From a virus (taxonomy: Duplodnaviria; Heunggongvirae; Uroviricota; Caudoviricetes): a DNA stretch of 34,322 nucleotides. The number at the start of each line of letters is the position of its first letter. Position 1 is the first letter of the stretch. The DNA is taken from IMG/VR virus record IMGVR_UViG_2675903330_000002. One strand, given 5' to 3'. The position numbers and the translations under genes are program-made. The notes beneath the pieces were generated by a model that did not search any database, had not been told where the DNA came from, and was given only the letters and a program-made list of their open reading frames with translations. Below, in pieces: positions 1,713 through 20,183 of the stretch.

Positions 1713-2012
1713 TTAACCAGTCTTTTGACCGGAGTGGGGCGACGTTGTTTCGTTTTGCCCAAAGTGTGCGAGAGCGGGCGCAATTTGCCCGGACTCAGGA
1801 GCGATCTGATTGGTCATGAACCATAAAGTGTATTTGGTGAATTGTGGGGTCTGCAGGATGTTCATCATGACATCTGTTGGAGGTGTTGAACGACCACTTT
1901 CATAGTAACTCAGCGTGCCATACGGAACCCCTGTTAAATCAGCAAGTTGTTGTCTGCTCAAATACTCTGATTTTCGCATTAAGACTATCTTCTCGCTTAT
2001 CGTGTTTGACAT
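1713..2012 (-). CDS. C: immunity repressor C (P2 C-like), 99 aa
   Basis: 99-aa ORF divergent from cox with an HTH-like segment (LSRQQLADLTGVPYGTLSYYESG). Position and size match P2 C. Confidence 0.85.
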   Translation of the reverse strand: MSNTISEKIVLMRKSEYLSRQQLADLTGVPYGTLSYYESGRSTPPTDVMMNILQTPQFTKYTLWFMTNQIAPESGQIAPALAHFGQNETTSPHSGQKTG

Positions 2013-2126
2013 GGTGTTTAGATCTCAATAGTATTTAGTTTAGATATAGATTGTTTAGTGCTTGGATGTGGGCACTAAAAGGCATTATAAGACATTAAAC
2101 GCAATTCATGAGGGCTAGAGGACGAC
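2013..2126. promoter_or_regulatory. C/cox divergent promoter-operator region with direct repeats
   Basis: GTTTAGAT repeated at 2016-2023 and 2038-2045 (22 bp apart), with a further GTTTAG at 2053. P2 C repressor is known to bind direct repeats flanking the early promoter. Confidence 0.45.
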
Positions 2127-2402
2127 ATGAGCAAGCAAGTAACACTCATGACTGATGCGATTCCTTATCAGGAGTTCGCAAAACTAATAGGAAAATCGAC
2201 AGGAGCGGTTCGTCGGATGATCGATAAAGGAAAGCTGCCTGTAATTGATATGACCGATCCACAATCAGCTTCAGGTCGTGCAGGTGAATATTGGGTATAC
2301 CTTCCGGCATGGAATAACGGACTAAAACTGGCTTATGAAAGCCGCCCTAAAGAGATTCGTGACGGCTGGTTGATGTGGTTAGGTCTCGGTGAACCACGTT
2401 AA
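2127..2402 (+). CDS. cox: Cox (excisionase / transcriptional switch), 91 aa
   Basis: 91-aa ORF divergent from C, with AGAGGA upstream of the ATG. Size and position as P2 Cox. Confidence 0.85.
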   Translation: MSKQVTLMTDAIPYQEFAKLIGKSTGAVRRMIDKGKLPVIDMTDPQSASGRAGEYWVYLPAWNNGLKLAYESRPKEIRDGWLMWLGLGEPR

Positions 2403-2412
2403 GGAGAACCGT

Positions 2413-2583
2413 ATGAATGAGCCTCGTTGTATTGCTCAGTTACTGCGTAACGAAAGCCCCAGGGCGATTGACTTCACCATCACCCACGGTAAGGGGCGTA
2501 AGGGAATCATTATCCGCACCAAAAAACAGAGTCCGTTAAAAAAGGCTCTGACCTTTCTGAAAAGCCGGAGGGTATGGAAATGA
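2413..2583 (+). CDS. P2 orf78-like small protein (56 aa)
   Basis: ATG at 2413 preceded by AAGGAG. The six-frame track gives a longer 64-aa ORF from an upstream alternative start. Confidence 0.6.
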   Translation: MNEPRCIAQLLRNESPRAIDFTITHGKGRKGIIIRTKKQSPLKKALTFLKSRRVWK

Positions 2584-3080
2584 CAGTGATGACGCTCAAT
2601 CTCGTTGAAAAACAGCCAGCAGCTATGCGCCGGATAATTGGTAAGCATCTTGCCGTTCCTCGCTGGCAGGATACATGTGATTATTATAATCAGATGATGG
2701 AGCGCGAACGGCTAACAGTTTGCTTTCATGCGCAGTTAAAACAGCGTCACGCAACGATGCGTTTTGAAGAAATGAACGACGTCGAACGTGAACGACTGGT
2801 ATGTGCAATTGATGAATTGCGTGGGGCATTCTCAAAACGCCGTCAGGTTGGCGCAAGTGAGTATGCATATATTAGTTTTTTAACAGTCAGTCAGCGTCGT
2901 ACTTTATTTATGCATGCCGGATTGACTGAAAAAGAATTCAACCAGCCATACTGGCGAATTAATGAAGAGTCATGTTACTGGCGTGATGCTTTATTCCGTG
3001 CATTACGTGAATTATTCAGTCTGTTTGAGTATGCACCGACAATTCTGACGTCGGTAAAACCAGAGCAATATCTGCATTAA
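2580..3080 (+). CDS. B: replication protein B-like (166 aa)
   Basis: ORF in the P2 B position. Start taken as the second ATG (2580) to match the expected size; the ATG at 2574 is also possible. Confidence 0.65.
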   Translation: MTVMTLNLVEKQPAAMRRIIGKHLAVPRWQDTCDYYNQMMERERLTVCFHAQLKQRHATMRFEEMNDVERERLVCAIDELRGAFSKRRQVGASEYAYISFLTVSQRRTLFMHAGLTEKEFNQPYWRINEESCYWRDALFRALRELFSLFEYAPTILTSVKPEQYLH

Positions 3081-3143
3081 GTAATTAACCAGAGTTTTTA
3101 ACGCACTTAATCGTGCGGGGCTTCTTTTTGCCTGGAGAAAGTC

Positions 3144-3368
3144 ATGCATACAGTTTCTGAAAATCAGTGCGGTAAATACGCATTACTGCTGCAACAGGCC
3201 AGAACCGAAGCACAGGCCGACGCTGCGACGCGCTTTTCTTCTCATCTTGACGCCATGATTCGCCACATAACAAAGGCGGAGTTATCCCGCGTGGAGATAG
3301 TCGAGCTGCTCAGTCAGGAGTCGGAAAAATTTCACAATATCGGATTGTCTCGCGGGGAGGTGCTTTGA
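3144..3368 (+). CDS. P2 orf80-like hypothetical protein (74 aa)
   Basis: ATG preceded by GGAGAAAG. Part of a tightly packed early operon. Confidence 0.6.
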
Positions 3369-3667
3369 TGTCCTGTTCTCATTCAGTTGTATTACTGAAT
3401 AACGCCTTAAAAATCGCCGTTATGGAAAATGGTGATTTGTCTCTTATTCAACTTGGTCTTGATAAAGAAAAACGCGACATAACTGAATCTGTTATCGCGA
3501 TTTATCAGAATGAATTAAACCTCCTGTCTGATGTGGTCAATTTACTTGTTAAACGCGCTGTATTCCACAAGCAAATTTCCTCCGTGGATGAACTGACAAA
3601 ATTAACGACAGAACTTGCCAGTTATTGCGCTGATGTATCCAGGAAACTTAACGATAAAAGGAGCTGA
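3368..3667 (+). CDS. P2 orf81-like hypothetical protein (99 aa)
   Basis: ATG at 3368 overlaps the stop of the preceding ORF (TGATG). The track ORF starts at a TTG three bases upstream. Confidence 0.6.
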   Translation: MSCSHSVVLLNNALKIAVMENGDLSLIQLGLDKEKRDITESVIAIYQNELNLLSDVVNLLVKRAVFHKQISSVDELTKLTTELASYCADVSRKLNDKRS

Positions 3668-3669
3668 TA

Positions 3670-3894
3670 ATGCCGGACAACGTAGATTTTATTCAGGAAC
3701 AACAGACTGAATTACTGGAGCGCCAGATTAACGCGGCAAGGGTAAAACATTGCGGTGCTTCTGCGCTGGTTTGCGAAGAGTGTGACGCGCCAATACCTGC
3801 TGCCCGTCGTGCGGCTTATCCGTCAGCCACGCGTTGTGTTTCCTGTCAGTCAGTCTTTGAAGCAAAAAACAAACATTACCGGAGAACGGCATGA
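3670..3894 (+). CDS. TraR/DksA-family C4 zinc-finger protein (P2 orf82-like), 74 aa
   Basis: CxxC...CxxC pattern (CEECDAPIP...RCVSCQ). AAAAGGAG upstream of the ATG. Confidence 0.7.
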   Translation: MPDNVDFIQEQQTELLERQINAARVKHCGASALVCEECDAPIPAARRAAYPSATRCVSCQSVFEAKNKHYRRTA

Positions 3895-4166
3895 GTATTC
3901 GTATTGAAATTGGCGAACGTTATGTCGTTACCAGTGACAGCTTTCAGTTTATTCTCCACGAGAAAAAGAGAGCGGAAAGCGGTAAAAACGCCGGTCAGGA
4001 ATGGCTGTCGGTGGTTGGTTATTACCCGAAATTAAGCCAGCTCGTTTCCGGCCTGATGCATCACGATATTCTGACCGGAAGCGCAAAGTCTTTTGCTGAT
4101 TTAAACGTGCAGGTTGAGCAACTCAGCAAGCGTTGTTCAGAGGCTTTTGGCTCATATGGCCGTTAA
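3891..4166 (+). CDS. P2 orf83-like hypothetical protein (91 aa)
   Basis: ORF with ATG at 3891 overlapping the upstream stop. Its 3' end overlaps the start of A. Confidence 0.55.
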   Translation: MSIRIEIGERYVVTSDSFQFILHEKKRAESGKNAGQEWLSVVGYYPKLSQLVSGLMHHDILTGSAKSFADLNVQVEQLSKRCSEAFGSYGR

Positions 4167-6432
4167 AGCCTCCGGGCGTTTTGTCCCTCCGTCAGCATTT
4201 GCCGCAGGCACCGGTAAGGCGTTTACCGGTGCTTATGCATGGAACGCGCCACGCGAGGCTGTCGGGCGCGAAAGACCCCTTACACGTGACGAGATGCGTC
4301 AGGTGCAAGGTGTTTTATCCACGATTAACCGCCTGCCTTACTTTTTGCGCTCGCTGTTTACTTCACGCTATGACTACATCCGGCGCAATAAAAGCCCGGT
4401 GCACGGGTTTTATTTTCTCACATCCACTTTTCAGCGTCGTTTATGGCCGCGCATTGAGCGTGTGAATCAGCGCCATGAAATGAACACCGACGCGTCGTTG
4501 CTGTTTCTGGCAGAGCGTGACCATTATGCGCGTCTGCCGGGGATGAATGACAAGGAGCTGAAAAAGTTTGCCGCCCGTATCTCATCGCAGCTTTTCATGA
4601 TGTATGAGGAACTCTGCGATGCCTGGGTGGATGCGCATGGCGAAAAAGAATCGCTGTTTACGGATGAGGCGCAGGCTCACCTCTATGGTCATGTTGCTGG
4701 TGCTGCACGTGCTTTCAATATTTCCCCTCTCTACTGGAAAAAATACCGTAAAGGGCAGATGACCACGAGGCAGGCATATTCTGCCATTGCCCGTCTGTTT
4801 AACGATGAGTGGTGGACCCATCAGCTTAAAGGCCAGCGTATGCGCTGGCATGAGGCGTTACTGATTGCTGTCGGGGAGGTCAATAAAGACCGTTCTCCTT
4901 ATGCCAGTAAACATGCCATTCGTGATGTGCGTGCACGCCGCCAGGCAAATCTGGAATTTCTTAAATCGTGTGATCTCGAAAACAGGGAAACCGGCGAGCG
5001 CATCGACCTTATCAGTAAGGTGATGGGCAGTATTTCTAATCCTGAAATTCGCCGGATGGAGCTGATGAACACCATTGCCGGTATTGAGCGTTACGCCGCA
5101 GCAGAGGGTGATGTGGGGATGTTTATCACGCTGACCGCGCCGTCAAAGTATCACCCGACACGTCAGGTCGGAAAAGGCGAAAGTAAAACCGTCCAGCTTA
5201 ATCACGGCTGGAATGATGAGGCATTTAATCCAAAGGATGCGCAGCGATATCTCTGCCGTATCTGGAGCCTGATGCGCACGGCATTCAAGGATAATGATTT
5301 ACAGGTCTACGGTTTGCGTGTCGTCGAGCCACACCACGACGGAACGCCGCACTGGCATATGATGCTTTTTTGTAATCCACGCCAGCGTAACCAGATTATC
5401 GAAATCATGCGTCGCTACGCGCTCAAAGAGGATGGAGACGAAAGAGGAGCTGCGCGAAACCGTTTTCAGGCAATACACCTTAACCGGGGCGGTGCTGCGG
5501 GATATATCGCGAAATACATTTCAAAAAACATCGACGGCTATGCACTGGATGGTCAGCTCGATAACGATACCGGCAGGCCGCTGAAAGACACTGCCGCGGC
5601 TGTTACCGCATGGGCGTCAACGTGGCGCATTCCGCAATTTAAAACGGTTGGCCTGCCGACAATGGGGGCTTACCGTGAACTACGCAAATTGCCTCGCGGC
5701 GTCAGCATTGCTGATGAGTTTGACGAACGCGTCGAGGCTGCACGCGCTGCCGCAGACAGTGGCGATTTTGCGCTGTATATCAGCGCGCAGGGTGGGGCAA
5801 ATGTCCCGCGCGATTGTCAGACTGTCAGGGTCGCCCGTAGCCCGTCGGATGACGTTAACGAGTACGAGGAAGAGGTCGAGAGAGTGGTCGGCATTTACGC
5901 GCCGCATCTCGGCGCGCGTCATATTCATATCACCAGAACGACGGACTGGCGCATTGTGCCGAAAGTTCCGGTCGTTCAGCCTTTGACTTTAAAAAGCGGC
6001 ATCGCCGCGCCTCGGAGTCCTGTCAATAACTGTGGAAAGCTCACCGGTGGTGATACTTCGTTACCGGCTCCCACACCTTCTGAGCACGCCGCAGCAGTGC
6101 TTAATCTGGTAGATGACGGTGTTATCGAATGGAATGACCAGGAGGTCGTGAGGGCGCTCAGAGGTGCATTAAAACACGGTCTGAGAAGACCAAACCGTCA
6201 GCAAAGAAACGGAAGCCCGTTAAAACCGCATGAAATAGCGCCATCGGCCAGACTGACCCGGTCGGAACGAATGCAAATTACCCGTATCCGCGTTGACCTT
6301 GCTCAGAACGGTATCAGGCCACAGCGATGGGAGCTTGAGGCGCTGGCGCGTGGCGCGACCGTAAATTATGACGGGGAAAAATTCACGTATCCGGTCGCTG
6401 ATGAGTGGCCGGGATTCTCAACAAACATATAA
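4156..6432 (+). CDS. A: replication initiation endonuclease A (rolling-circle, HUH-type)
   Basis: About 758-aa ORF in the P2 gpA position, with an H-x-H metal-binding motif (HWHMMLF) and nearby Tyr residues. The track ORF starts at a TTG at 4114; the first ATG is at 4156. Confidence 0.85.
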   Translation: MAVKASGRFVPPSAFAAGTGKAFTGAYAWNAPREAVGRERPLTRDEMRQVQGVLSTINRLPYFLRSLFTSRYDYIRRNKSPVHGFYFLTSTFQRRLWPRIERVNQRHEMNTDASLLFLAERDHYARLPGMNDKELKKFAARISSQLFMMYEELCDAWVDAHGEKESLFTDEAQAHLYGHVAGAARAFNISPLYWKKYRKGQMTTRQAYSAIARLFNDEWWTHQLKGQRMRWHEALLIAVGEVNKDRSPYASKHAIRDVRARRQANLEFLKSCDLENRETGERIDLISKVMGSISNPEIRRMELMNTIAGIERYAAAEGDVGMFITLTAPSKYHPTRQVGKGESKTVQLNHGWNDEAFNPKDAQRYLCRIWSLMRTAFKDNDLQVYGLRVVEPHHDGTPHWHMMLFCNPRQRNQIIEIMRRYALKEDGDERGAARNRFQAIHLNRGGAAGYIAKYISKNIDGYALDGQLDNDTGRPLKDTAAAVTAWASTWRIPQFKTVGLPTMGAYRELRKLPRGVSIADEFDERVEAARAAADSGDFALYISAQGGANVPRDCQTVRVARSPSDDVNEYEEEVERVVGIYAPHLGARHIHITRTTDWRIVPKVPVVQPLTLKSGIAAPRSPVNNCGKLTGGDTSLPAPTPSEHAAAVLNLVDDGVIEWNDQEVVRALRGALKHGLRRPNRQQRNGSPLKPHEIAPSARLTRSERMQITRIRVDLAQNGIRPQRWELEALARGATVNYDGEKFTYPVADEWPGFSTNI

Positions 6433-6535
6433 AAATGATTGAAATGGTTGATTTTGCTTCCACTTGATGGTTGGTATCAGCAACTGATGGATCATGCGGA
6501 ACTGCGTGGCGATCTTGCTTTGGAAGCATGTCATT

Positions 6536-6754
6536 ATGACTAATGCATACATTACTAGCTATGCGTCCGGTTCCGCCATTGTACTCGTGCAAGAGTCTGC
6601 GGCTGATGGCTATTGTTTACAAATTATGGTCAAAGAGAATCTGACCCTCTACGAGTTGGTCGGAGGGACTGAGATCGTCAGTGATAACTGCAGCCGTATG
6701 GGAGAAATCAATAATCCCAACCGTCCATATTTCTACCTTCACGCGTGCCCATAA
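6536..6754 (+). CDS. hypothetical small protein (orphan ORF between A and the RT gene)
   Basis: ORF only, with no clear Shine-Dalgarno sequence. It occupies the region where P2 has orf91. May be non-coding. Confidence 0.2.
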   Translation: MTNAYITSYASGSAIVLVQESAADGYCLQIMVKENLTLYELVGGTEIVSDNCSRMGEINNPNRPYFYLHACP

Positions 6755-6780
6755 TCTGTCACCACGTTGACCATAGAAAA

Positions 6781-6825
6781 CCCCGTCGACGCTGAAACTC
6801 GCTTTCAGTGCTGGCGGGGGTGAAC
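6781..6825 (-). terminator. possible rho-independent terminator for the minus-strand RT gene
   Basis: CCCCG (6781-6785) pairs with CGGGG (6815-6819), with an inner CTGAAA/TTTCAG stem. On the minus strand the hairpin is followed by TTTTCT. Confidence 0.3.
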
Positions 6826-6919
6826 AACGAGCTTGCGAGGCGTTAGGGATGTCGAAATTTCATATGACTGTTCGCTTTAATGCTTAACGAAGTCATGTTG
6901 AGTTAATAACATTGTTTCG

Positions 6920-8464
6920 TTAAGCGCTGTGTTCCTTGTCGAATAAGTTCACTTCTTCTGGTGTAATATCATTATCCATTTCTTCGAATGCATCTAAATC
7001 CACAATTTTTGTTTTTTTCAAAATTGATAGTATTTTCTGTTTGTTTTTACTTTTGGCTGAGCCCGGAATCCACTCTACATCCCACAGGCCATCAATGGTA
7101 AATGTTTTTTTTCCCTTGAGTTCATCATTTATGCGTTGACATAGGGCTGTTTTGTAATCGCCTTCCCATTGTGTGTGTATCTTCCCTTGAACTCGTTGAA
7201 ACCAAATATCTAACATTTCAGTATTTGGTTGTTTACCTAGTTTACAATGAAGTTGTTGTAACTTGCCAAATTTGAGTTCATCGTCGTCATAAAGGAAGGT
7301 CAAGAGTTTTGCGAAAATAGCCATTCCCACTGGGTAGGTGGTTGGGTTTTTAGCCATGATGCTTGAAATAATTCCAAGCATTGCATCTAGTTGATGCCCA
7401 CTATTTGTGATCTTTTTCTTCCTAAATAATTTTCGCAAGAAATCATTTAAATATCTAACTGTAATTTTGGAGTTTTGATGTTTTAAAGAAAATAAATATA
7501 TTGCATACAACATTTTCTGTAGGGAGTTGAACGACCTTTCTATAATATATTCTTTTTTTGCTGATTTAAGGGAGTGAAGAATGATGTCGTCATGTAGTTC
7601 TGTTTTTCTTGAGTTTAAATCAAGCCCAAACTCACCTAAGACCTCAACCAAACACTTTGAGATTTTGTCCAAATCATCTTTACTGCTTGAAAATATTCGA
7701 TAATCATCTCTGTAGCGAACTACTTTGTAATCCGTTATTTTTTGCTCTTCAGTTTTTTTTCTTAGCTGTAAATCAATTTCGCCTAAAATTAATTCGGCAA
7801 ATGTATCCATCAACGTACTACCCAATGGTATTCCGTTTGTCTGATTACTCATCATCATCTGGATATGAGTGTCAATCAATCGTCCTGGGTTATTGTTATT
7901 TTCTTTCTTTTTGGCCTCTTCTTTTGAGATGAATACCCATTCAAAGCTATGAGTGTAAATAGAAGGGTAGAAGTTTGAAATATCTGTGCTGAACATGAAC
8001 TCATACTCAAGAGCCAATGAAAGACTTTTTTGTTCAAAATCTTCCCACCAGTTTAAAACAGATGCAGCTACGTTTGAGGTGTTCTTTTTGCTCACTGGGG
8101 TACTTGAGCATAAAAAAAGATCATTAGACTCAAACTCTCTAAATTTATTCTTTATAGCCTTCCAGTTGGAAGGGGATGTAATAAGTTTACAAAAATACAC
8201 GTAGTACAGAGGATTAATTAGTGTTATTCGTCGCCAGCTATATAAGCCATCTTTGCTGACTAAAACCTCGTAATTTATATTCTTCCCCATCAATGACTTG
8301 GAGTCAGGTTGGAAGTTGATTTTACCTTCATCTATCGCGGAGTTGATTTCTTCAAGCAAGGAAGAAAAATCGACATAACTGGGTAGCTCCAGAGTAGTGT
8401 ATGAATCATGCTGCAGAAAATACTTAAGCGCTCTACCAGTAGTTAATTCATAAATCTTTTTCAT
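6920..8464 (-). CDS. Abi-type reverse transcriptase (AbiA/AbiK/Abi-P2-like), 515 aa, in the P2 tin/old slot
   Basis: RT palm motifs readable in the translation: RRITLINP (motif 1), FSTDISNFYPSIY (motif A), NGIPLGSTLMDTFAEL (motif B), VRYRDDYRIF (YxDD, motif C), GLDLNSRKTEL (motif D/E). An extra C-terminal domain of about 175 aa follows. Start taken at MKKIYEL (8464); the track's longer form starts at 8590. The gene is AT-rich relative to the phage backbone. Confidence 0.75.
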   Translation of the reverse strand: MKKIYELTTGRALKYFLQHDSYTTLELPSYVDFSSLLEEINSAIDEGKINFQPDSKSLMGKNINYEVLVSKDGLYSWRRITLINPLYYVYFCKLITSPSNWKAIKNKFREFESNDLFLCSSTPVSKKNTSNVAASVLNWWEDFEQKSLSLALEYEFMFSTDISNFYPSIYTHSFEWVFISKEEAKKKENNNNPGRLIDTHIQMMMSNQTNGIPLGSTLMDTFAELILGEIDLQLRKKTEEQKITDYKVVRYRDDYRIFSSSKDDLDKISKCLVEVLGEFGLDLNSRKTELHDDIILHSLKSAKKEYIIERSFNSLQKMLYAIYLFSLKHQNSKITVRYLNDFLRKLFRKKKITNSGHQLDAMLGIISSIMAKNPTTYPVGMAIFAKLLTFLYDDDELKFGKLQQLHCKLGKQPNTEMLDIWFQRVQGKIHTQWEGDYKTALCQRINDELKGKKTFTIDGLWDVEWIPGSAKSKNKQKILSILKKTKIVDLDAFEEMDNDITPEEVNLFDKEHSA

Positions 8465-8670
8465 AATTAGTGATTTCTTCTTAAGTTGCGCACAAATAAC
8501 TACCTGTTTTCTATCATGATAACGATGCGAATGCGAGCAATTCAGGAAGTGCATTACTCTGCATCGAAGCGCACGCAAGTCAGAGAACAATAACTGCCTG
8601 GCGACATCAGGACTGGCGCGCTAGTTGAGTGGTCATGCAACTGCATTAAAACCGCCCCATGAAGCGGGCG

Positions 8671-8689
8671 GGCGAGGCGGGGGAAGCAC
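8671..8689. other. cos site (19-nt cohesive-end sequence GGCGAGGCGGGGGAAGCAC)
   Basis: Matches the P2/186 cohesive-end sequence as I recall it, with at most one difference. Lies between the A-side genes and Q as in P2, within a GC-rich dyad region. Confidence 0.7.
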
Positions 8690-8859
8690 TGCGCGCTAAA
8701 CGATGTCGCTGGCTTGCAGTTACCCGGTTGAAATTCTTATTTTTTTGTTGCATTATTCTTAGCGCACCAGCGATTCGCTTGGTATGCGGCAGTCAACAAC
8801 ATTAAATTGTCAGTTTTTGCTTTTACAAAAAAGCGTCCACTATGGACCTATCAGCGAGG

Positions 8860-9000
8860 CCCCACCGTCGTCAACTACGATGGTGCCGTAGCCGACGACA
8901 TTACGTACGGTCGAAAGATAGCAGAGGCTGTTGCTGACAATTGTTGATGTAAGCATCTCTGCTGTTCCACCCTTGAGTATGGGAAGACCGTACGTAACTT
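8860..9000 (+). ncRNA. candidate structured non-coding RNA upstream of the retron-type RT (possible msr/msd-like element)
   Basis: Perfect 12-bp inverted repeat TTACGTACGGTC (8901-8912) and GACCGTACGTAA (8986-8997), the latter 17 nt before the RT start codon. A compound hairpin GTCGTC-A-CTACG-loop-CGTAG-CC-GACGAC lies at 8867-8899, and an inner AGCAGAG/CTCTGCT stem at 8920-8963. Boundaries and strand are not established. Confidence 0.3.
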
Positions 9001-9014
9001 TGAATTTGAATGGT

Positions 9015-10205
9015 ATGTTTATGGATAAATTTAAACCATACAGCAAATCCAATGCTCCTATCACAACACTTGAAAAGTTGTCAAAGGCTTTATCGATTTC
9101 TGTTGAAGAGCTTAAAGCTATTGCAGAATTACCATTAGATGAGAAATATACTCTAAAAGAAATTCCCAAAATTGACGGAAGCAAACGGATTGTCTACTCC
9201 CTGCATCCTAAAATGAGATTATTACAGAGTAGAATTAATAAACGTATCTTTAAGGAATTGGTTGTTTTTCCTTCATTTTTGTTTGGTTCAGTTCCCAGTA
9301 AAAATGATGTTTTAAATTCTAATGTCAAACGTGACTATGTTTCATGTGCAAAGGCTCATTGTGGAGCAAAAACAGTTCTCAAGGTGGATATAAGTAATTT
9401 TTTCGATAATATCCATAGAGATCTGGTTAGGAGCGTGTTTGAGGAGATATTGCATATTAAGGATGAGGCTCTTGAATACTTGGTGGATATATGTACTAAG
9501 GATGATTTTGTCGTACAGGGGGCCTTAACATCAAGCTATATAGCAACTTTGTGTTTATTCGCTGTTGAAGGGGATGTGGTAAGACGTGCGCAGAGGAAAG
9601 GACTTGTTTATACGCGTTTGGTAGATGATATTACCGTGTCATCTAAAATAAGTAATTATGATTTTTCTCAAATGCAAAGCCATATAGAGAGGATGCTTTC
9701 TGAGCATGACTTGCCGATAAATAAGCGCAAAACTAAAATATTTCACTGTTCATCTGAACCTATAAAAGTACATGGTTTAAGAGTTGACTATGACTCACCT
9801 CGACTACCATCCGATGAAGTCAAAAGAATCAGGGCATCTATACATAATTTGAAATTACTGGCGGCAAAAAATAACACAAAAACAAGTGTTGCATACAGAA
9901 AAGAATTCAATAGATGTATGGGGAGAGTGAATAAGCTTGGCCGTGTTGCGCATGAAAAATATGAATCATTCAAGAAACAGTTGCAGGCAATAAAACCGAT
10001 GCCATCTAAAAGAGATGTTGCTGTGATTGATGCAGCTATAAAAAGTTTAGAGTTGTCGTATTCGAAAGGTAATCAAAATAAACATTGGTATAAAAGAAAA
10101 TATGATTTGACGAGATATAAGATGATTATTCTTACTCGCTCTGAATCATTTAAAGAAAAACTGGAGTGTTTTAAATCTAGATTGGCATCTTTAAAACCAT
10201 TATGA
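9015..10205 (+). CDS. retron-type reverse transcriptase (about 396 aa)
   Basis: Motifs align in order with retron RTs such as Ec86 (from memory): SKALSISVEEL (N-terminal), RIVYSLHP (motif 1), AKAHCGA (NAxxH-like), KVDISNFFDNI (motif A), VVQGALTSSYIATL (motif B), YTRLVDDITVS (motif C), INKRKTKI, KVHGLRV (VTG-like, Thr replaced by His), IRASIHNL. Start taken at the first ATG (9015); the track ORF begins at a TTG at 8931. Confidence 0.75.
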   Translation: MFMDKFKPYSKSNAPITTLEKLSKALSISVEELKAIAELPLDEKYTLKEIPKIDGSKRIVYSLHPKMRLLQSRINKRIFKELVVFPSFLFGSVPSKNDVLNSNVKRDYVSCAKAHCGAKTVLKVDISNFFDNIHRDLVRSVFEEILHIKDEALEYLVDICTKDDFVVQGALTSSYIATLCLFAVEGDVVRRAQRKGLVYTRLVDDITVSSKISNYDFSQMQSHIERMLSEHDLPINKRKTKIFHCSSEPIKVHGLRVDYDSPRLPSDEVKRIRASIHNLKLLAAKNNTKTSVAYRKEFNRCMGRVNKLGRVAHEKYESFKKQLQAIKPMPSKRDVAVIDAAIKSLELSYSKGNQNKHWYKRKYDLTRYKMIILTRSESFKEKLECFKSRLASLKPL

Positions 10206-10909
10206 ATGCAAATATTAGACTTCTCAAATATATTGTCGGTGTGTCGTCAGCTCTTTTTTTGATTTTTTCGCTAATTTCTCTTTTTGAAACTATTCAGAAT
10301 GAAAAGCTATATGAGCGTGATATATGCTTCGATAGCCAGTGCTTAAAATTTTTTGCGGAAAAAACATCTGGTATAGTAATGTATTTTCAGGCGTTTGGAT
10401 GGCTTATAACAACTTTTGTTACCGTTTTTGGTGTTATGATTGCTTTGATGACATATAACGCTGGAGTTAAAAATAATAATAATAGTAATTACACTAGTCA
10501 TCTGACGATGTTTAGAGAATTTGCAAGTGCTGAGTTAACTAAAAGAAGTAGCATCTATCCAGAGAAAGTTAATTTTTTTAGATGGTATAGGGTTATGTTC
10601 CCTGAAGCGCAAGGCGGTGATATATCTGTTTCGAGAGATTATCTAGAAATAATATCTAGAATCAAATGTGTTATTGAGGAAGCCAATGCACATATTACAG
10701 AGGAAAATAAAGACTATAAATATAAAACTCATCAGAGAAAAATGATGGCTGTTTTGGATGAAATCGGTATATCGATTAGTAATGGGCCCAAAAATATTTT
10801 TATTGAGGTTGAGAGTCAAATTTTGGATTATATCGATACTATTAATTTGTCATTTTGTCACTCCTCATCAGTGATAGAATTAAGTAGAGTAAAAAGGAAG
10901 TATATATAG
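10202..10909 (+). CDS. two-transmembrane-helix protein, putative retron effector (235 aa)
   Basis: ATGA overlap with the RT stop indicates translational coupling. Two hydrophobic helices (LLKYIVGVSSALFLIFSLISLF and GIVMYFQAFGWLITTFVTVFGVMIALMTY) precede a soluble domain of about 150 aa with no motif I recognise. Confidence 0.65.
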   Translation: MNANIRLLKYIVGVSSALFLIFSLISLFETIQNEKLYERDICFDSQCLKFFAEKTSGIVMYFQAFGWLITTFVTVFGVMIALMTYNAGVKNNNNSNYTSHLTMFREFASAELTKRSSIYPEKVNFFRWYRVMFPEAQGGDISVSRDYLEIISRIKCVIEEANAHITEENKDYKYKTHQRKMMAVLDEIGISISNGPKNIFIEVESQILDYIDTINLSFCHSSSVIELSRVKRKYI

Positions 10910-10911
10910 TT

Positions 10912-10940
10912 AAGTTGGCGGGATTGCATTCCGCCAACTT
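10912..10940. terminator. hairpin terminator between convergent effector gene and Q
   Basis: 10-bp perfect stem AAGTTGGCGG/CCGCCAACTT with a 9-nt loop, followed by TTATATATTTA. Lies in the 42-bp gap between two convergent stop codons. Confidence 0.5.
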
Positions 10941-10951
10941 TATATATTTAC

Positions 10952-11971
10952 TTATAAGTTATAATCAAGGAATTTTATGACTTCCATATCTAACCATTCA
11001 TTTATTGACTTTATTCTCTCCTGTAATGGAATGAGTTCATTGCGGACAAAGACCTTTGCCACTTTTTCAATATCTCCTAGTGACCCGACATTCTCCGGCT
11101 TACCGCCCATCAACTGAAAGGGGATGCGGTGTGCGTCCAGGAGATCTGCGGCGCTGACTTTTTTGATATTAAAAAAATCGTCCTTCGTCGCCACTTCACT
11201 GAGGGGGATAATTTTAATGCCGTCGGCTTTCCCCTGTGGGGCATAGAGAAACAGGTTTTTAAAGTTGTTGCGGCCTTTCGACTTAACCATGTTTTCGCGA
11301 AGCATTTCGATATCGTTGCGATCCTGCACGGCATCGGTGACATACATGATGTATCCGGCATGAGCGCCGTTTTCGTAATACTTGCGGCGGAACAGCGTGG
11401 CCGACTCATTCAGCCAGGCAGAGTTAAGGGCGCTGAGATATTCCGGCAGGCCGTACAGCTCCTGATTGATATCCGGCTCCAGCAGGTGAAACACGGAGCC
11501 GGGCGCGAAGGCTGTCGGCTCGTTGAAGGACGGCACCCACCAGTAAACATCCTCCTCCACGCCACGGCGGGTATATTTTGCCGGTGAGGTTTCCAGTCTG
11601 ATGACCTTACCGGTGGTGCTGTAACGCTTTTCCAGAAACGCATTACCGAACACCAGAAAATCCAGCACAAAGCGGCTGAAATCCTGCTGGGACAGCCACG
11701 GGTGCGGGATAAACGTTGAAGCCAGAATATTGCGTTTAACGTAAATCGGTGAGCTGTGATGCACGGCAGCACGCAGGCTTTTTGCCAGACCGGTAAAGCT
11801 GACCGGTGGCTCATACCATCTGCCGTTACTGATGCACTCGACGTAATCCAGAATATCACGGCGGTCGAGTACCGGCACCGGCTCACCAAAGGTGAATGCC
11901 TCCATTTTCGGGGCGCTGGCAGTCATTGTTTTCACCGCTGGCTGCGGTGTTTTCCCTTTTTTCTTACTCAT
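10952..11971 (-). CDS. Q: portal protein (gpQ-like), 339 aa
   Basis: Position and size as P2 Q. Start overlaps the stop of P (ATGA). Confidence 0.85.
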   Translation of the reverse strand: MSKKKGKTPQPAVKTMTASAPKMEAFTFGEPVPVLDRRDILDYVECISNGRWYEPPVSFTGLAKSLRAAVHHSSPIYVKRNILASTFIPHPWLSQQDFSRFVLDFLVFGNAFLEKRYSTTGKVIRLETSPAKYTRRGVEEDVYWWVPSFNEPTAFAPGSVFHLLEPDINQELYGLPEYLSALNSAWLNESATLFRRKYYENGAHAGYIMYVTDAVQDRNDIEMLRENMVKSKGRNNFKNLFLYAPQGKADGIKIIPLSEVATKDDFFNIKKVSAADLLDAHRIPFQLMGGKPENVGSLGDIEKVAKVFVRNELIPLQERIKSINEWLDMEVIKFLDYNL

Positions 11972-13743
11972 CAGTAAAACTCCAGAATGGTGGATGTCAG
12001 CGGGGTGCTGATACCGGCGGTGAGTGGCTCATTTAACAGGGCGTGCATGGTCGCCCAGGCGAGATCGGCGTGGCTGGCTTCCTCGCTGCGGCTGGCCTCA
12101 TAGGTGGCGCTGCGTCCGCTGCTGGTCATGGTCTTGCGGATAGCCATAAACGAGCTGGTGATGTCGGTGGCGCTGACGTCATATTCCAGACAGCCACGGC
12201 GGATAACGTCTTTTGCCTTGAGCACCATTGCGGTTTTCATTTCCGGCGTGTAGCGGATATCGCGCGCGGCGGGATAGAACGAGCGCACGAGCTGGAACAC
12301 GCCGACACCGAGGCCGGTGGCATCAATCCCGATGTATTCAACGTTATATTTTTCGGTGAGTTTGCGGATGGATTCCGCCTGGGTGGCAAAGTCCATGCCT
12401 TTCCACTGGTGACGCTCAAGTATTCTGAATTTGCCACCGGCCACCACCGGCGGTGCCAGTACCACGCATCCGGCGCTGTCGCCACGGTGTGACGGGTCGT
12501 AACCAATCCATACCGGGCGGGAGCCGAACGGATTTGCGGCAAACGGCGCATAGTCTTCCCATTCTTCCAGCGTGTCGACCATGCAACGTTGCAGCTCCTC
12601 GAACGGGAACACCGACGCCTTGTCGTCAACAAATTCACACATGAACAGGTTTTTAAAATCGTCGGCGCTGTTTTCACGTTTGAGCTGCTCAATGTCGAAC
12701 AGCGTGCAGCCGCCTTTCAGGGCGTCCTCAATGGTGACAATCTGCCGCCACTGGCCGTCCGCACAGAGAAGACCTCCGGCAAGGGCGTTATGACTGACGT
12801 CGATTTCCACGCGTTCGGCGGCGCTGGCGCGTCCCCGGTTGAACAGTTCACCCGACCAGAACGGGTAGGCGTCGTGCGCCAGCGTGGACGGGGTGGAGAA
12901 ATAGGTCGAGCGCAGGTGACTCTGTGAGGCCATACCTGATGCCACCTTACGCAGTACCTGAAAATTCGGGATCCAGAAAATCTCGTCGACGTACAGGTCG
13001 CCGTTATGGCTCTGTGCGGTGTTGGAGTTGGTGCCGAGAAAAATCAGTTTTGCGCCGTTATTGCCCAGGACAATCGGGTCACCGGTCAGGTCAACGTCAA
13101 CCAGCCGGGCAAAGGCGATGATGTATTCGCGGAACACATACGCCTGCGTTTTACTGGCCGACAGAAAAATCTGGTTATGACCGGTTTTCAGGGCGCGCAG
13201 CAGCGCCTCGCGGGAAAAATAAAACGTCGCGCCAATCTGGCGGGATTTCAGGATATCGCGGATGCGGTGCTCAAGCCCGGCGCGATACCAGTGCAACTGA
13301 TATTCGAAAGACTGCTCAAAGAAAATCTGCTCCAGCTTTTCGATGGCCTCGTCACTGAAAAAATTCTTTTTCGGTTTGCGACGCCCGCCTTTGTTGCGGT
13401 TAGCGACGTTCGGATTAAGGTCTGCCTCGTTGCCGGTCTGACTGTAGCGGTTGACCCGTGCCAGTCGTTCAATCTGACGTCCCAGCAGGTCAATTTCCTT
13501 GAAGTCACCGCCGGTTTTCTGCGGTTTGATGATGAGCTGGGTCAGCCGCGCTTCCAGACTCATTTCGACACGGCTGATGGGGGCAACGCTGTCCCAGCCG
13601 TCGCGCTGTTTCCAGCTCTGCACCGTCGGGCGTTTCATCTGCAACATGGCGGCAATCTGCGGCACGGAAAACCCCTGCCAGTACAGCAGCGCCGCCTGAC
13701 GACGCGGGTCGTGTAAAAGAGTGGTGTCTGTGGTGATGGTCAT
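11971..13743 (-). CDS. P: terminase large (ATPase) subunit (gpP-like), about 590 aa
   Basis: Large ORF divergent from O. Start taken at the internal ATG (13743) preceded by GAGGT, which gives the P2-like size; the track ORF extends to 13773. Confidence 0.85.
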   Translation of the reverse strand: MTITTDTTLLHDPRRQAALLYWQGFSVPQIAAMLQMKRPTVQSWKQRDGWDSVAPISRVEMSLEARLTQLIIKPQKTGGDFKEIDLLGRQIERLARVNRYSQTGNEADLNPNVANRNKGGRRKPKKNFFSDEAIEKLEQIFFEQSFEYQLHWYRAGLEHRIRDILKSRQIGATFYFSREALLRALKTGHNQIFLSASKTQAYVFREYIIAFARLVDVDLTGDPIVLGNNGAKLIFLGTNSNTAQSHNGDLYVDEIFWIPNFQVLRKVASGMASQSHLRSTYFSTPSTLAHDAYPFWSGELFNRGRASAAERVEIDVSHNALAGGLLCADGQWRQIVTIEDALKGGCTLFDIEQLKRENSADDFKNLFMCEFVDDKASVFPFEELQRCMVDTLEEWEDYAPFAANPFGSRPVWIGYDPSHRGDSAGCVVLAPPVVAGGKFRILERHQWKGMDFATQAESIRKLTEKYNVEYIGIDATGLGVGVFQLVRSFYPAARDIRYTPEMKTAMVLKAKDVIRRGCLEYDVSATDITSSFMAIRKTMTSSGRSATYEASRSEEASHADLAWATMHALLNEPLTAGISTPLTSTILEFY

Positions 13744-13916
13744 GAATACCTCGCCGTGATGAATACACGGCAAGGCTACTGAGTCGCGCCCCGCGATTCG
13801 CTAAGGTGCTGTTGTGTCAGTGATAAGCCATCCGGGACTGATGGCGGAGGATGCGCATCGTCGGGAAACTGATGCCGACATGTGACTCCTCTAATCACTA
13901 TTCAGGACTCCTGACA

Positions 13917-14771
13917 ATGGCAAAAAAAGTCTCAAAATTCTTTCGTATCGGCGTTGAGGGTGACACCTGTGACGGGCGTGTCATCAGTGCGCAGGATATT
14001 CAGGAAATGGCCGAAACCTTTGACCCGCGAGTCTATGGTTGCCGCATTAACCTGGAACATCTGCGCGGCATCCTGCCTGACGGTATTTTTAAGCGTTACG
14101 GCGATGTGGTCGAACTGAAGGCCGAAAAGATTGATGACGATTCGGCGCTGAAAGGCAAATGGGCGCTGTTTGCGAAAATCACCCCGACCGATGACCTTAT
14201 CGCGATGAACAAGGCCGCGCAGAAGGTCTATACCTCAATGGAAATTCAGCCGAACTTTGCCAACACCGGCAAATGTTATCTGGTGGGGCTGGCCGTCACC
14301 GATGACCCGGCAAGCCTCGGCACGGAATACCTGGAATTCTGCCGCACGGCAAAACACAACCCCCTGAACCGCTTCAAATTAAGCCCTGAAAACCTGATTT
14401 CAGTGGCAACGCCTGTTGAGCTGGAATTTGAAGACCTGCCTGAAACCGTGTTCACCGCCCTGACCGAAAAGGTGAAATCCATTTTTGGCCGCAAACAGGC
14501 CAGCGATGACGCCCGTCTGAATGACGTGCATGAAGCGGTGACCGCTGTTGCTGAACATGTGCAGGAAAAACTGAGCGCCACTGAGCAGCGCCTCGCTGAG
14601 ATGGAAACCGCCTTTTCCGCACTTAAGCAGGATGTGACTGACAGGGCGGATGAAACCAGCCAGGCATTCACCCGCCTGAAAAACAGCCTCGACCACACCG
14701 AAAGTCTGACCCAGCAGCGCCGCAGCAAGGCCACCGGCGGTGGCGGTGACGCCCTGATGACGAACTGCTGA
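13917..14771 (+). CDS. O: capsid scaffolding protein (gpO-like), 284 aa
   Basis: Start at MAKKVSKF (13917). Position and size as P2 O. Confidence 0.8.
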   Translation: MAKKVSKFFRIGVEGDTCDGRVISAQDIQEMAETFDPRVYGCRINLEHLRGILPDGIFKRYGDVVELKAEKIDDDSALKGKWALFAKITPTDDLIAMNKAAQKVYTSMEIQPNFANTGKCYLVGLAVTDDPASLGTEYLEFCRTAKHNPLNRFKLSPENLISVATPVELEFEDLPETVFTALTEKVKSIFGRKQASDDARLNDVHEAVTAVAEHVQEKLSATEQRLAEMETAFSALKQDVTDRADETSQAFTRLKNSLDHTESLTQQRRSKATGGGGDALMTNC

Positions 14772-14829
14772 CCGGCGTCAGTCAGTCCGGGAAAACCTTC
14801 ACGATTAACCCTTAATTTCAGGAAAAACT

Positions 14830-15903
14830 ATGCGCCAGGAAACCCGCTTTAAATTTAATGCCTACCTGTCCCGTGTTGCCGAACTGAACGGCATCGACGC
14901 CGGTGATGTGTCGAAAAAATTCACCGTTGAACCGTCGGTCACCCAGACCCTGATGAACACCATGCAGGAGTCCTCTGATTTTCTGACCCGCATCAACATT
15001 GTGCCGGTCAGCGAAATGAAAGGGGAAAAAATTGGTATTGGTGTCACCGGCTCCATCGCCAGCACCACCGACACCGCCGGTGGCACCGAGCGTCAGCCGA
15101 AGGACTTCTCGAAGCTGGCGTCAAACAAGTACGAATGCGACCAGATTAACTTCGATTTTTATATCCGCTACAAAACGCTTGACCTGTGGGCGCGTTATCA
15201 GGATTTCCAGCTTCGTATCCGTAACGCCATTATCAAACGCCAGTCCCTTGATTTCATCATGGCCGGTTTTAACGGTGTGAAGCGTGCCGAAACCTCTGAC
15301 CGCAGCAGTAATCCGATGTTGCAGGATGTGGCGGTCGGCTGGCTGCAGAAATACCGCAATGAAGCCCCGGCGCGCGTGATGAGCAAGGTCACTGACGAGG
15401 AAGGCCGCACCACCTCTGAGGTCATCCGCGTGGGTAAGGGCGGTGATTATGTAAGCCTCGATGCACTGGTGATGGATGCGACCAACAACCTGATTGAGCC
15501 GTGGTATCAGGAAGACCCTGACCTTGTGGTGATTGTGGGGCGTCAGCTACTGGCGGACAAGTATTTCCCCATCGTCAACAAGGAGCAGGACAACAGCGAA
15601 ATGCTGGCCGCTGACGTCATCATCAGCCAGAAACGCATCGGCAACCTGCCAGCGGTACGCGTCCCGTACTTCCCGGCGGATGCGATGCTCATCACGAAGC
15701 TGGAAAACCTGTCCATCTACTACATGGATGACAGCCATCGCCGCGTGATTGAGGAAAACCCGAAACTCGACCGCGTGGAGAACTACGAGTCAATGAACAT
15801 TGATTACGTGGTGGAGGACTACGCCGCCGGTTGTCTGGTGGAAAAAATTAAGGTCGGTGATTTCTCCACACCGGCTAAGGCGACCGCAGAGCCGGGAGCG
15901 TAA
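14830..15903 (+). CDS. N: major capsid protein (gpN-like), 357 aa
   Basis: Synteny and size match P2 N. Confidence 0.85.
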   Translation: MRQETRFKFNAYLSRVAELNGIDAGDVSKKFTVEPSVTQTLMNTMQESSDFLTRINIVPVSEMKGEKIGIGVTGSIASTTDTAGGTERQPKDFSKLASNKYECDQINFDFYIRYKTLDLWARYQDFQLRIRNAIIKRQSLDFIMAGFNGVKRAETSDRSSNPMLQDVAVGWLQKYRNEAPARVMSKVTDEEGRTTSEVIRVGKGGDYVSLDALVMDATNNLIEPWYQEDPDLVVIVGRQLLADKYFPIVNKEQDNSEMLAADVIISQKRIGNLPAVRVPYFPADAMLITKLENLSIYYMDDSHRRVIEENPKLDRVENYESMNIDYVVEDYAAGCLVEKIKVGDFSTPAKATAEPGA

Positions 15904-15906
15904 CCG

Positions 15907-16650
15907 ATGACGAGTCCCGCACAGCGCCACATGATGCGGGTCTCGGCAGCGATGACCGCGCAGCGGGAAGCCGCCCCGCTGCGACATGCAACTGTCTATG
16001 AGCAGATGCTGGTCAAGCTGGCCGCAGACCAGCGCACACTGAAAGCGATTTATTCAAAAGAGCTGAAGGCCGCGAAAAAACGCGAACTGCTGCCGTTCTG
16101 GTTGCCGTGGGTGAACGGCGTGCTGGAGCAGGGCAAAGGTGCACAGGATGACATTCTGATGACGGTCATGCTGTGGCGTCTGGATACCGGCGATATTGCC
16201 GGTGCGCTGGAGATTGCCCGTTATGCCCTGAAGTACGGGCTGACCATGCCGGGTAAACACCGCCGCACCCCGCCGTACATGTTCACCGAGGAGGTGGCGC
16301 TTGCGGCCATGCGCGCTCACGCTGCCGGTGAATCCGTGGATATCCGACTGCTGACGGACACCCTTGAACTGACCGCTGCTGCTGACATGCCTGATGAAGT
16401 GCGCGCAAAGCTGCACAAAATCACCGGTCTGTTTCTGCGTGACGGTGGTGATGCCGCCGGTGCGCTGGCGCACCTGCAACGTGCGACACAGCTCGACTGT
16501 CAGGCAGGCGTCAAAAAAGAGATTGAACGACTGGAGCGGGAACTGAAACCGAAGCCGGAGCCGCAGCCAAAAGCGGCCACCCGCGCCCCGCGTAAGAGCC
16601 GGAGTGCGACACCGGCAAAACGTGGGCGCCCGAAAAAGAAAGCCAGTTAA
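15907..16650 (+). CDS. M: terminase small/endonuclease subunit (gpM-like), 247 aa
   Basis: Synteny and size. Basic Lys/Arg-rich C-terminus. Confidence 0.8.
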   Translation: MTSPAQRHMMRVSAAMTAQREAAPLRHATVYEQMLVKLAADQRTLKAIYSKELKAAKKRELLPFWLPWVNGVLEQGKGAQDDILMTVMLWRLDTGDIAGALEIARYALKYGLTMPGKHRRTPPYMFTEEVALAAMRAHAAGESVDIRLLTDTLELTAAADMPDEVRAKLHKITGLFLRDGGDAAGALAHLQRATQLDCQAGVKKEIERLERELKPKPEPQPKAATRAPRKSRSATPAKRGRPKKKAS

Positions 16651-16749
16651 CAACCGAATGCGCCCCGCGCCAGGGCGGCACGCCGGTCAGTGAGGGTGAA
16701 TCACCTGACACTGCACCGGCGTCCACCGCCCGACTTTTCAGAGGTAGTC

Positions 16750-17259
16750 ATGATGACGCTGATTATTCCGCGAAAGGAGGCTCCCGTGTCCGGTGAGGGT
16801 ACGGTGGTCATCCCGCAACCGGCAGGCGACGAGCCGGTGATTAAAAACACGTTCTTTTTTCCCGATATCGACCCGAAGCGCGTCCGGGAACGTATGCGCC
16901 TTGAGCAGACCGTCGCCCCCGCCCGTCTGCGTGAGGCCATCAAGTCAGGCATGGCTGAAACGAATGCGGAGCTGTACGAGTACCGCGAACAGAAAATTGC
17001 CGCCGGTTTTACGCGTCTGGCTGACGTCCCGGCGGACGACATCGACGGTGAAAGCATCAAAGTTTTTTACTACGAGCGCGCCGTGTGTGCGATGGCGACC
17101 GCATCGCTTTATGAGCGTTATCGCGGCGTGGATGCCAGTGCGAAAGGCGACAAGAAGGCCGACAGCATTGACAGCACCATTGATGAACTGTGGCGGGATA
17201 TGCGCTGGGCAGTGGCGCGCATCCAGGACAAGCCGCGCTGCATCGTGAGTCAAATCTGA
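16750..17259 (+). CDS. L: head completion/stabilisation protein (gpL-like), 169 aa
   Basis: Start at the ATG preceded by GAGGT (16750). Synteny. Confidence 0.8.
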   Translation: MMTLIIPRKEAPVSGEGTVVIPQPAGDEPVIKNTFFFPDIDPKRVRERMRLEQTVAPARLREAIKSGMAETNAELYEYREQKIAAGFTRLADVPADDIDGESIKVFYYERAVCAMATASLYERYRGVDASAKGDKKADSIDSTIDELWRDMRWAVARIQDKPRCIVSQI

Positions 17260-17462: not shown

Positions 17463-17465
17463 CGC

Positions 17466-18244: not shown

Positions 18245-18258
18245 ACGGAGTAAACACC

Positions 18259-20117: not shown

Positions 20118-20183
20118 TTGTGCCATTCCTGACACCTCATCGTCACATTGCCGCCGGTATGACCCGGCGGCATCCTTCCCGTT

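Follow-up and report, generated by a model that had tools for sequence, protein, structure and literature searches.

Odegrip et al. (2006) are said to have described a hotspot in P2-like phages, located between gpA and gpQ beside the cohesive-end site (cos), and Dodd and Egan (1996), to go by their title, reportedly found that retrons replace DNA between cos and a terminator in 186-related prophages. The source papers for retron Ec48, also named Retron-Eco6, are reportedly those of Mao et al. (1997), Millman et al. (2020) and Mestre et al. (2020). Here, we analysed the corresponding interval (6433-10950) of IMG/VR virus record IMGVR_UViG_2675903330_000002, the whole 34,322 nucleotides of which are referred to below as the window. 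With a probability of about 0.9, we explain this interval as the cos-proximal hotspot of a P2-like (pro147-like) prophage, in which two independent abortive-infection systems, Abi-P2 and Ec48, are split by a minimal packaging site.

The cos-adjacent defence hotspot between gpA and gpQ has been described systematically (Rousset et al. 2022, PMC9122126). The window shares with it the location, the flanks, the adjacency to cos and the protein sequences, and nothing essential is unlike: in Table S5B of that study, Abi-P2 of the window is system 16, 'RT-Abi-P2' (184 loci), with the same sequence, and its retron proteins are system 22, 'Type IV retron' (147 loci), with an identical effector. The region is real, had been interpreted correctly by the original prediction made from the sequence, and is already known; what we add to the picture of the hotspot are breakpoints at base level and the distinction between a commonly filled left and a usually empty right side.

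Both systems have been characterised experimentally. Abi-P2 enzymes are trimeric polymerases resembling reverse transcriptases (RTs), which synthesise untemplated DNA covalently primed on their own tyrosine, Tyr61 in PDB 7r08; exclusion of phage T5 was demonstrated for the Abi-P2 of P2-EC30, and orf544 of P2-EC58 is one of the two founding Abi-P2 genes (Figiel et al. 2022, PMC9508834). Ec48 needs its RT plus a non-coding RNA (ncRNA), as well as a membrane effector, and defends against phages of three families; death is triggered by inhibition of RecBCD through lambda Gam or T7 gp5.9, and the system is not maintainable in recB cells (bioRxiv 10.1101/2020.06.21.156273).

Two cassettes flank a conserved cos core

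By blastn, homology to P2 stops shortly before gene A ends, at 6423, reappears for 8642-8697 alone and sets in again at 11013 inside gene Q. Since it is missing between 6423 and 11013 apart from this short stretch, the tin/old genes of P2 have been replaced. The left flank is formed by the replication endonuclease gene A (4156-6432, plus strand), assigned by Pfam Phage_GPA (2.5e-123), the pro147 annotation and blastn against P2, and the right flank by the portal gene Q (10952-11971, minus strand; Pfam Phage_portal, blastn breakpoint at 11013). The 56 bp between the two cassettes (8642-8697, 96% identity), which we call the cos core, are the sole sequence between A and Q conserved with P2. When several phages are viewed together, identity around cos spans approximately ...CTGCATTAAAACC to ...TGCGCGC, and the sequences diverge directly outside. 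Within the core, direct reading and comparison with the cosL and cosR features of P2 placed the 19-nt cohesive end, GGCGAGGCGGGGGAAGCAC, at 8671-8689 on the plus strand. Its position 13 (8683) is a G in the window (GGGGGAAGCAC), whereas it is an A (GGGGAAAGCAC) in pro147 and in the 11 other relatives compared, P2 among these.

Comparison with P2 and with E. coli prophages containing other cargo set the breakpoints at 6423/6424, 8641/8642, 8697/8698 and 11012/11013, those of the right side being placed against P2 and prophages whose right side is empty (L010 and L011). The same junctions recur against the prophages with other cargo: where a DUF7380 gene on the left is combined with the same retron, the match to the window begins at 8628, and where the same Abi-P2 occurs without the retron, the match runs up to 8697 and returns from 11013. 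These recurring junctions delimit two cassettes, 6424-8641 and 8698-11012, hinged on the 56-bp cos core. The left one, with breakpoints from blastn, comprises a small open reading frame (ORF), a junction element and Abi-P2, and replaces orf91-tin-old of P2. The right one takes the place of the ~170-bp spacer that separates cos from Q in P2 and holds, besides the Ec48 retron unit, a terminator and a 3' end of Q in variant form. The last ~20 codons of Q (10952-11012) come with the retron module, ending in …EWLDMEVIKFLDYNL here versus …GWLGQEVIRFKNYSLDTDND in P2, and the C-terminus of the portal protein therefore tolerates replacement; gpQ has 339 amino acids here and 344 in P2.

The arrangement bears out the original prediction, which had seen two RT-like genes transcribed divergently from a spacer containing cos, the loss of tin-old and an expanded interval between cos and Q. 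Both ORFs carry an RVT_1 domain and the cohesive end lies between them, while the distance from cos to the Q stop is 2262 bp here compared with 167 bp in P2. The description as a single cargo island needs refining: the cargo is foreign and AT-rich, but it consists of two independent modules.

In many complete E. coli chromosomes, for example NZ_LR882050 and NZ_CP048604, numbering begins at the start codon of gene A of the prophage, which puts the island at 1845-7245; it seems that tools for rotating assemblies choose the P2 replication gene as the first position.

The left cassette

At the DNA level, the left cassette is 99.6% identical to the P2-EC58 record AM157368. Its main gene (6920-8464, minus strand) encodes Abi-P2, an RT-like abortive-infection polymerase of 514 amino acids recognised by PADLOC, Pfam RVT_1 and the solved Abi-P2 structure of P2-EC30 (PDB 7r08). 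From an alternative start upstream, at 8554, the product has 544 amino acids and is identical to orf544 of P2-EC58. The PADLOC AbiP2 profile matched over positions 4-487 of 489 (4.7e-160), the next best profile being Drt6 (3.8e-47). The alignment with 7r08 (E 6.8e-258, 75% identity over 508 residues) covers residues 1-508, including the entire C-terminal helical domain. The domain layout is the same, the catalytic YRDD is found at residues 251-254 of the 514-residue form, and the priming tyrosine is kept: Y30 (LELPSYVDF) of the window aligns with Tyr61 (LELPAYINF) of 7r08. The window protein differs in being the EC58 allele of Abi-P2, and polymerase activity and phage exclusion would carry over to it by analogy with the EC30 homologue. 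Of the two RT genes originally predicted, the plus-strand one is a retron RT, while this one belongs to a class of template-independent, protein-primed DNA polymerases. Abi-P2 can form stand-alone cargo, being the only annotated cargo gene between A and Q in CE0032f and MS 198-1.

The region upstream of Abi-P2 (8465-8641, minus strand), which is part of the left cassette, presumably contains its promoter, judging by the orientation of the gene; in P2, the old-tin mRNA starts ~150 bp to the left of cos (P2 record features). A consensus scan returned no convincing promoter in 8465-8641, and no reliable call could be made because the scan found 13 sites where 17 were expected by chance.

The remainder of the cassette lies next to gene A. 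A small ORF (6536-6754, plus strand) encodes 72 amino acids, or corresponds to ORF85 of P2-EC58 if its start is 6494; it is not AT-rich and matches phrog_13272 (1.9e-54), a family of unknown function. This ORF is annotated in pro147 and P2-EC58 and missing from the variant of the left cassette found in LR882050. It is followed on its 3' side by an element of ~87 bp (6760-6846), which has 80-90% identity to many other P2-like prophages with different left cargo. A 487-bp query covering 6433-6919 matched 333 genomes and, below the full-length matches, most of the matches listed corresponded to this segment. The element also occurs in genomes without the present cargo, for example ~2.9 kb past the start of gene A, and is probably a junction or terminator piece common to different left-side cassettes.

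The right cassette

The first gene of the right cassette (9021-10205, plus strand; alternative start at 9015) encodes an RT of 394 amino acids, which matched the PADLOC RT_IV profile over positions 2-385 of 386 (1.4e-176) and Pfam RVT_1 (5.2e-31). Its translation contains KVHG and CAKAH, corresponding to the peculiarities of the Ec48 RT, VHG for VTG and a non-Asn residue in NAXXH (PMC6868368). It is followed by a two-transmembrane (2TM) effector gene (10202-10909, plus strand; PADLOC 2TM_IV, 4.1e-85), the RefSeq name of which is 'retron Ec48 family effector membrane protein'; hydrophobic segments are located at residues ~5-32 and 58-86. The start of the effector gene overlaps the stop of the RT gene by 4 nt (ATGA, 10202-10205), and the order with a 2TM effector gene adjoining or overlapping the 3' end of the RT gene is that of type IV retrons (PMC7736814). 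On its sequence, we identify the plus-strand pair as retron Ec48 / Retron-Eco6, type IV, with which it agrees in ncRNA, RT motifs, overlapping 2TM effector and gene order, there being no sequence difference.

Retrons Ec67 and Ec86 (Dodd and Egan 1996) are reportedly placed alike, between cos and a terminator beside the portal gene of a prophage of the P2/186 family. Unlike Ec48, they belong to other retron types (an RT-Toprim fusion in Ec67, an NDT effector in Ec86) and to another phage subgroup.

Downstream of the effector gene, a terminator scan detected a hairpin (10912-10940) with a 13-bp stem and T/A runs on both sides, which occupies the place of tQ in P2 and probably terminates transcription from both directions, that of the retron operon and that of the Q-P operon.

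The residue numbering of Millman et al., D216/D217, matches the RT ORF if it is started at ATG 8979 (bioRxiv 10.1101/2020.06.21.156273). This start, which underlies the 408-amino-acid annotation of both Millman and Rousset, was rejected, as no more than 3 of the 36 homologous loci have a reading frame that stays open from there into the RT gene. The ATG is nearly invariant and yet seldom leads into the RT, and is therefore a feature of the RNA, where it belongs to a conserved hairpin. Translation more likely starts at 9015 or 9021 than at 8979, and the 408-amino-acid annotation is probably wrong.

Reassortment of the two sides among E. coli prophages

Over 5,426 complete E. coli genomes, the Abi-P2 cassette was found in 64 and the retron cassette in 57 (at ≥99%), with both present in 42, while the A-Q query matched 1,745. 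The cargo genes are thus no conserved feature of this position. On the left, the retron is partnered by the same Abi-P2, by a divergent Abi-P2 (LR882050) or by a DUF7380 gene (GN02461, 755); on the right, Abi-P2 is partnered by the retron, by an empty side (CE0032f, MS 198-1) or by an unrelated ORF of 333 amino acids. These combinations show the two sides to be separate modules that reassort among E. coli prophages. All 57 retron copies are chromosomal, and in every copy inspected the retron lies between cos and the portal gene.

To compare the two sides, we located cos and measured both of them in 13 loci with different cargo. The left side, 1.2-3.3 kb long, is occupied in all 13, its repertoire including old/tin, cdtABC, Fic, DUF4209, DUF4238 and an exoribonuclease. 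On the right, the length is 167-170 bp in P2 and nine other relatives (two Abi-P2 prophages and seven phages), so that 10 of the 12 retron-less phages and prophages, counting P2, share this range; the retron brings it to 2262 bp, and another prophage has 1438 bp. Together with the finding that the empty junction between cos and Q occurs in 1,539 or more complete E. coli genomes, these lengths show that the original prediction was right to call the interval normally short, and right-side cargo is a minority state.

The hosts of the 42 genomes with both modules include humans, dogs, horses and poultry, and some came from wastewater. The Abi-P2 cassette was also found, with a P2-like gene set, on two records annotated as plasmids, NZ_CP146689 (66.8-kb 'plasmid unnamed2', E. 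coli MS 198-1) and NZ_CP018956 (216 kb). These copies could reflect a phage-plasmid state, integration into a plasmid or an assembly artefact.

RNA structure of the retron leader

The ncRNA (msr-msd) of Retron-Eco6 was located at 8742-8927 on the plus strand by means of the supplement of the retron census, whose Eco6 ncRNA string aligns to these positions with three single-base indels that stem from text extraction. The a1 arm of helix A (AATTGTCAG, 8805-8813, plus strand) forms a perfect inverted repeat with 8934-8942, the a2 arm. G8813 is likely the branching G, a weak hint towards which is that the RT-DNA string of the census departs from the window exactly at 8811-8813. The msd template (8861-8908, plus strand) would yield a 48-nt multicopy single-stranded DNA (msDNA), or one of 45 nt if its end is 8864, and contains a hairpin at 8864-8884. 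The census RT-DNA string starts at the complement of C8908, and the census field '130;136', which we read as the donor-insertion site, falls on the loop 8871-8877. RT-DNA of Ec48 has been reported with lengths of 48 nt and 3 nt shorter (PMC8989520).

The ncRNA is annotated in none of the RefSeq records that we examined, and ORF32 of pro147, a 'hypothetical protein' (8840-8956, minus strand) antisense within it, is probably spurious.

For a comparative view of the leader, we gathered 48 type IV loci from other genera (RT identity 41-57%), 39 of which had their leaders aligned by a program that uses sequence alone. This revealed a conserved 3' domain (8901-8997, plus strand), recognised from RNAalifold, pair counts and a fold z-score of -5.3. 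Helix B (8901-8912 / 8986-8997) is part of it, as are a long hairpin (~8917-8927 / 8956-8966) whose loop bears the a2 arm, and a small hairpin (8969-8972 / 8981-8984) with the most conserved loop of the region, all on the plus strand. RNAalifold predicted 29 pairs, 27 of them with compensatory changes. When the structure was specified, compensatory changes were found in 9 of 9 pairs of helix A and in 12 of 12 pairs of helix B, the latter with 89% of cells paired. The covariation score was 0.489, compared with 0.226 for shuffles (none of 500 reached 0.489) and at most 0.205 with slid partners. Helices A and B cross. The loop of the long hairpin holds the a2 arm, and helix B includes the first eight bases of the template. 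In comparison with the Retron-Eco6 entry of the census, the leader thus has a conserved domain, 8928-8997, that lies entirely beyond the listed ncRNA, as well as a long-range crossing helix.

The census puts the RT-DNA start, 8908, within helix B, at a distance of 25 nt upstream from the a2 arm; the textbook model of priming is therefore not a clean fit to this RNA. Two other placements of the msd template, one adjoining a2 (8886-8933) and one adjoining b2 (8938-8985), are contradicted by this start and by the loop 8871-8877, and a permuted-retron model with the branching G in b2 (G8990) was rejected, the position being mostly A in homologues. A search of 6300-11100 against Rfam gave no match even at E<=1, no retron family included, and at the gathering threshold no RNA family was found in the island when the whole window was searched, CyaR in the host flank being the sole match.

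The crossing-helix structure is well supported by covariation, while a function in gating or coupling is speculative. We regard it as a tentative and rather doubtful idea that the type IV ncRNA, that of Ec48 included, is larger and more complex than the census version and that a pseudoknot or two-state switch in it gates msDNA synthesis or couples it to translation of the RT and effector. Through helix B, the eight nucleotides at the beginning of the template would be clamped to RNA that copies the 5' end of the msDNA and lies 24 nt upstream of the RT start codon. In the sister type VI retrons, a multi-arm 'hybrid RNA' is found and msDNA synthesis derepresses translation; by analogy, a similar coupling in type IV would be a reasonable idea.

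Base composition

The G+C (GC) content of the region differs from that of the backbone, as had been predicted. The GC content and its value at third codon positions (GC3) are 0.351 and 0.359 for the Abi-P2 gene (6920-8464), 0.346 and 0.289 for the retron RT gene (9021-10205), and 0.315 and 0.271 for the 2TM effector gene (10202-10909). The three cargo genes therefore range over 0.32-0.35 (GC3 0.27-0.36), versus 0.51-0.57 (GC3 0.55-0.71) for the flanking phage genes gpA (0.538, GC3 0.549), gpQ (0.507, GC3 0.609) and gpP (0.573, GC3 0.709), and 0.572 for the backbone at 11972-23000. Taken as one, the stretch 6433-10950 has a GC content of 0.371. In sliding windows, the backbone is at 0.52-0.60 and troughs of 0.31-0.37 are found at ~7000-8500 and 9000-11000, separated by a peak of 0.49 at 8501-9000; it is explained by the cos core, with 0.68, and by the retron leader, with 0.48, neither of which is AT-rich. 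The 487 bp directly 3' of gene A (6433-6919) are only mildly low, at 0.458. The claim that the sequence is AT-rich from the end of gene A to the stop of Q thus applies to the three cargo genes and fails for 6433-6919, the cos core and the retron leader; low GC is a property of the three cargo genes, which fits their recent acquisition by horizontal transfer.

Proposed function and alternative explanations

On the left of cos, Abi-P2 would act as a single-gene system making untemplated DNA primed from its own tyrosine. On the right, the Ec48 RT would copy part of the upstream ncRNA into 48-nt msDNA, and the retron with its 2TM effector would kill the cell once lambda Gam or T7 gp5.9 inactivates RecBCD. 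The biochemical activities and triggers are those given in the literature. We infer that each side is swapped as a cassette by recombination, with the cos core as the hinge that stays fixed and two outer anchors, one at the end of A and one at the 3' end of Q. The low-GC genes would probably be targets of silencing by H-NS, in analogy to retron Eco1 of BL21, which lies in a P2-like remnant and whose low-GC genes H-NS/StpA bind and silence (bioRxiv 10.64898/2026.09.05.749240); such silencing of the cargo is plausible here.

The replaced old gene offers a parallel. OLD, too, is an abortive system triggered by inhibition of RecBCD through lambda Gam and T7 gp5.9 (bioRxiv 10.64898/2026.07.10.737580), and it shares the hotspot with Ec48. 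It is, however, an unrelated protein, an ATPase-TOPRIM tRNase, and is encoded to the left of cos, where Abi-P2 has taken its place. Since Ec48 shares the RecBCD trigger, the retron may be a functional analogue of old, an analogous guard on the right of cos.

The original prediction also held that cos must stay functional in spite of cargo on both sides, and the evidence supports this. The 56-bp core is retained, and the island is 99.9% identical over 5.4 kb to that of phage pro147 (NC_028896), which was obtained by induction with mitomycin C; plaques appear on several strains, and imaging showed virions of a myovirus (PMC5285337). As pro147 is induced and forms plaques with this island, cargo flanking the core is compatible with packaging. 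We propose that packaging is unaffected because all terminase requirements lie in the conserved core.

We considered whether the two RT-like genes might instead form one interdependent two-polymerase defence system, as in DRT3 with its two RTs, with cos between them by chance. The two do co-occur far above chance, 42 of the 57 retron genomes containing this Abi-P2 allele, a divergent Abi-P2 is also found opposite the retron in LR882050, and Abi-P2 matches the Drt3b profile, if more weakly than its own (4.3e-39). Against this, each gene set matches a complete, separately characterised system from end to end, Abi-P2 is found with an empty right side and the retron with DUF7380 instead, Ec48 defends when cloned without Abi-P2 (bioRxiv 10.1101/2020.06.21.156273), and Rousset et al. 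list Abi-P2 and the type IV retron as separate systems (PMC9122126). A DRT3-like system was rejected as a candidate because the genes are divergent, have cos between them and occur apart in other prophages, rather than forming one operon with a shared ncRNA. The co-occurrence would follow from linkage of the two genes, 2.2 kb apart, in one successful prophage lineage, and we consider a joint system very improbable. Still more so is the idea that the RT genes are selfish mobile retroelements, such as a group II intron or a diversity-generating retroelement (DGR), inserted beside cos and unrelated to defence. RVT_1 is found in both proteins and the boundaries of the retron module are sharp, as such elements would have them, but no Rfam family (intron, DGR or other) was detected in 6300-11100, no maturase or endonuclease domain and no pair of template and variable repeats was seen, the best profile matches are defence families (retron, Abi) with near-complete coverage, and the modules, instead of lying scattered over genomes, are swapped between anchors that are conserved in the phage.

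There is likewise little chance that the prophage is defective and its cos disused, with cargo that amounts to ballast, silenced and in decay, and genes that are intact by accident. The cohesive end carries a unique substitution, AT-rich genes are typical H-NS targets, and the window departs from pro147 in its integrase/immunity region (1-2412) and its tail fibre/invertase region (22506-25992). Yet all ORFs are full length and at least 99% conserved over dozens of genomes from different hosts, and the backbone holds a complete P2 gene set, with 97-98% identity to pro147, an inducible phage, along most of the genome. One RefSeq genome is 100% identical to the window across 6000-11400, cos variant included, and the cohesive end of pro483 also has a single substitution, a different one at position 14. 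We therefore retain two independent abortive-infection systems on either side of a minimal packaging site as the best explanation. Several observations nevertheless weigh against it. The A-to-G change at position 13 of the cohesive end has no counterpart in pro147 and makes the packaging of this copy less than certain; the geometry of the retron RNA is non-canonical, the RT-DNA starting 25 nt upstream of the covarying a2 arm and within a second helix; and the shared Abi-P2 allele in 42 of 57 retron genomes, although it points to one successful prophage lineage, could reflect co-selection of the pair rather than mere linkage. Moreover, the activities ascribed to this prophage come from the literature, and both systems may be silenced in the native prophage.

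Other features of the prophage

The tail region (22677-26025) contains a fibre gene and an assembly gene, followed by an inverted second assembly gene and an inverted alternative C-terminus of the fibre. It is closed by a resolvase of the Hin/Gin type (25387-26025), an arrangement indicating an invertible host-range segment. Within 32394-34322, the right end of the prophage, marked by an ogr-like gene (32394-32687), borders on the small RNA gene CyaR (minus strand, 32793-32878; score 100.7 bits) and on a yegQ-like gene encoding a U32 peptidase. This neighbourhood of CyaR and the yegQ-like gene we take to be the site of the ogrK P2 remnant in E. coli K-12.

Significance

For annotation, an AT-rich island with two RTs becomes two named, experimentally characterised defence systems with boundaries at base level. 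The hotspot of P2 can be seen as two slots around a 56-bp cos core, of which the left is filled in every phage measured and the right is empty in most, and in a prophage that has lost the RecBCD-linked abortive system old, the retron found across cos is triggered by the same logic. The two-slot view and the parallel between the triggers of old and the retron leave current understanding unchanged. The comparative RNA structure may be the only part that adds to knowledge, and it concerns the retron family rather than this island: if the 3' domain is needed for efficient msDNA synthesis, Eco6 constructs ending at 8927 would lack a functional part of the RNA, which would be relevant to retron engineering.

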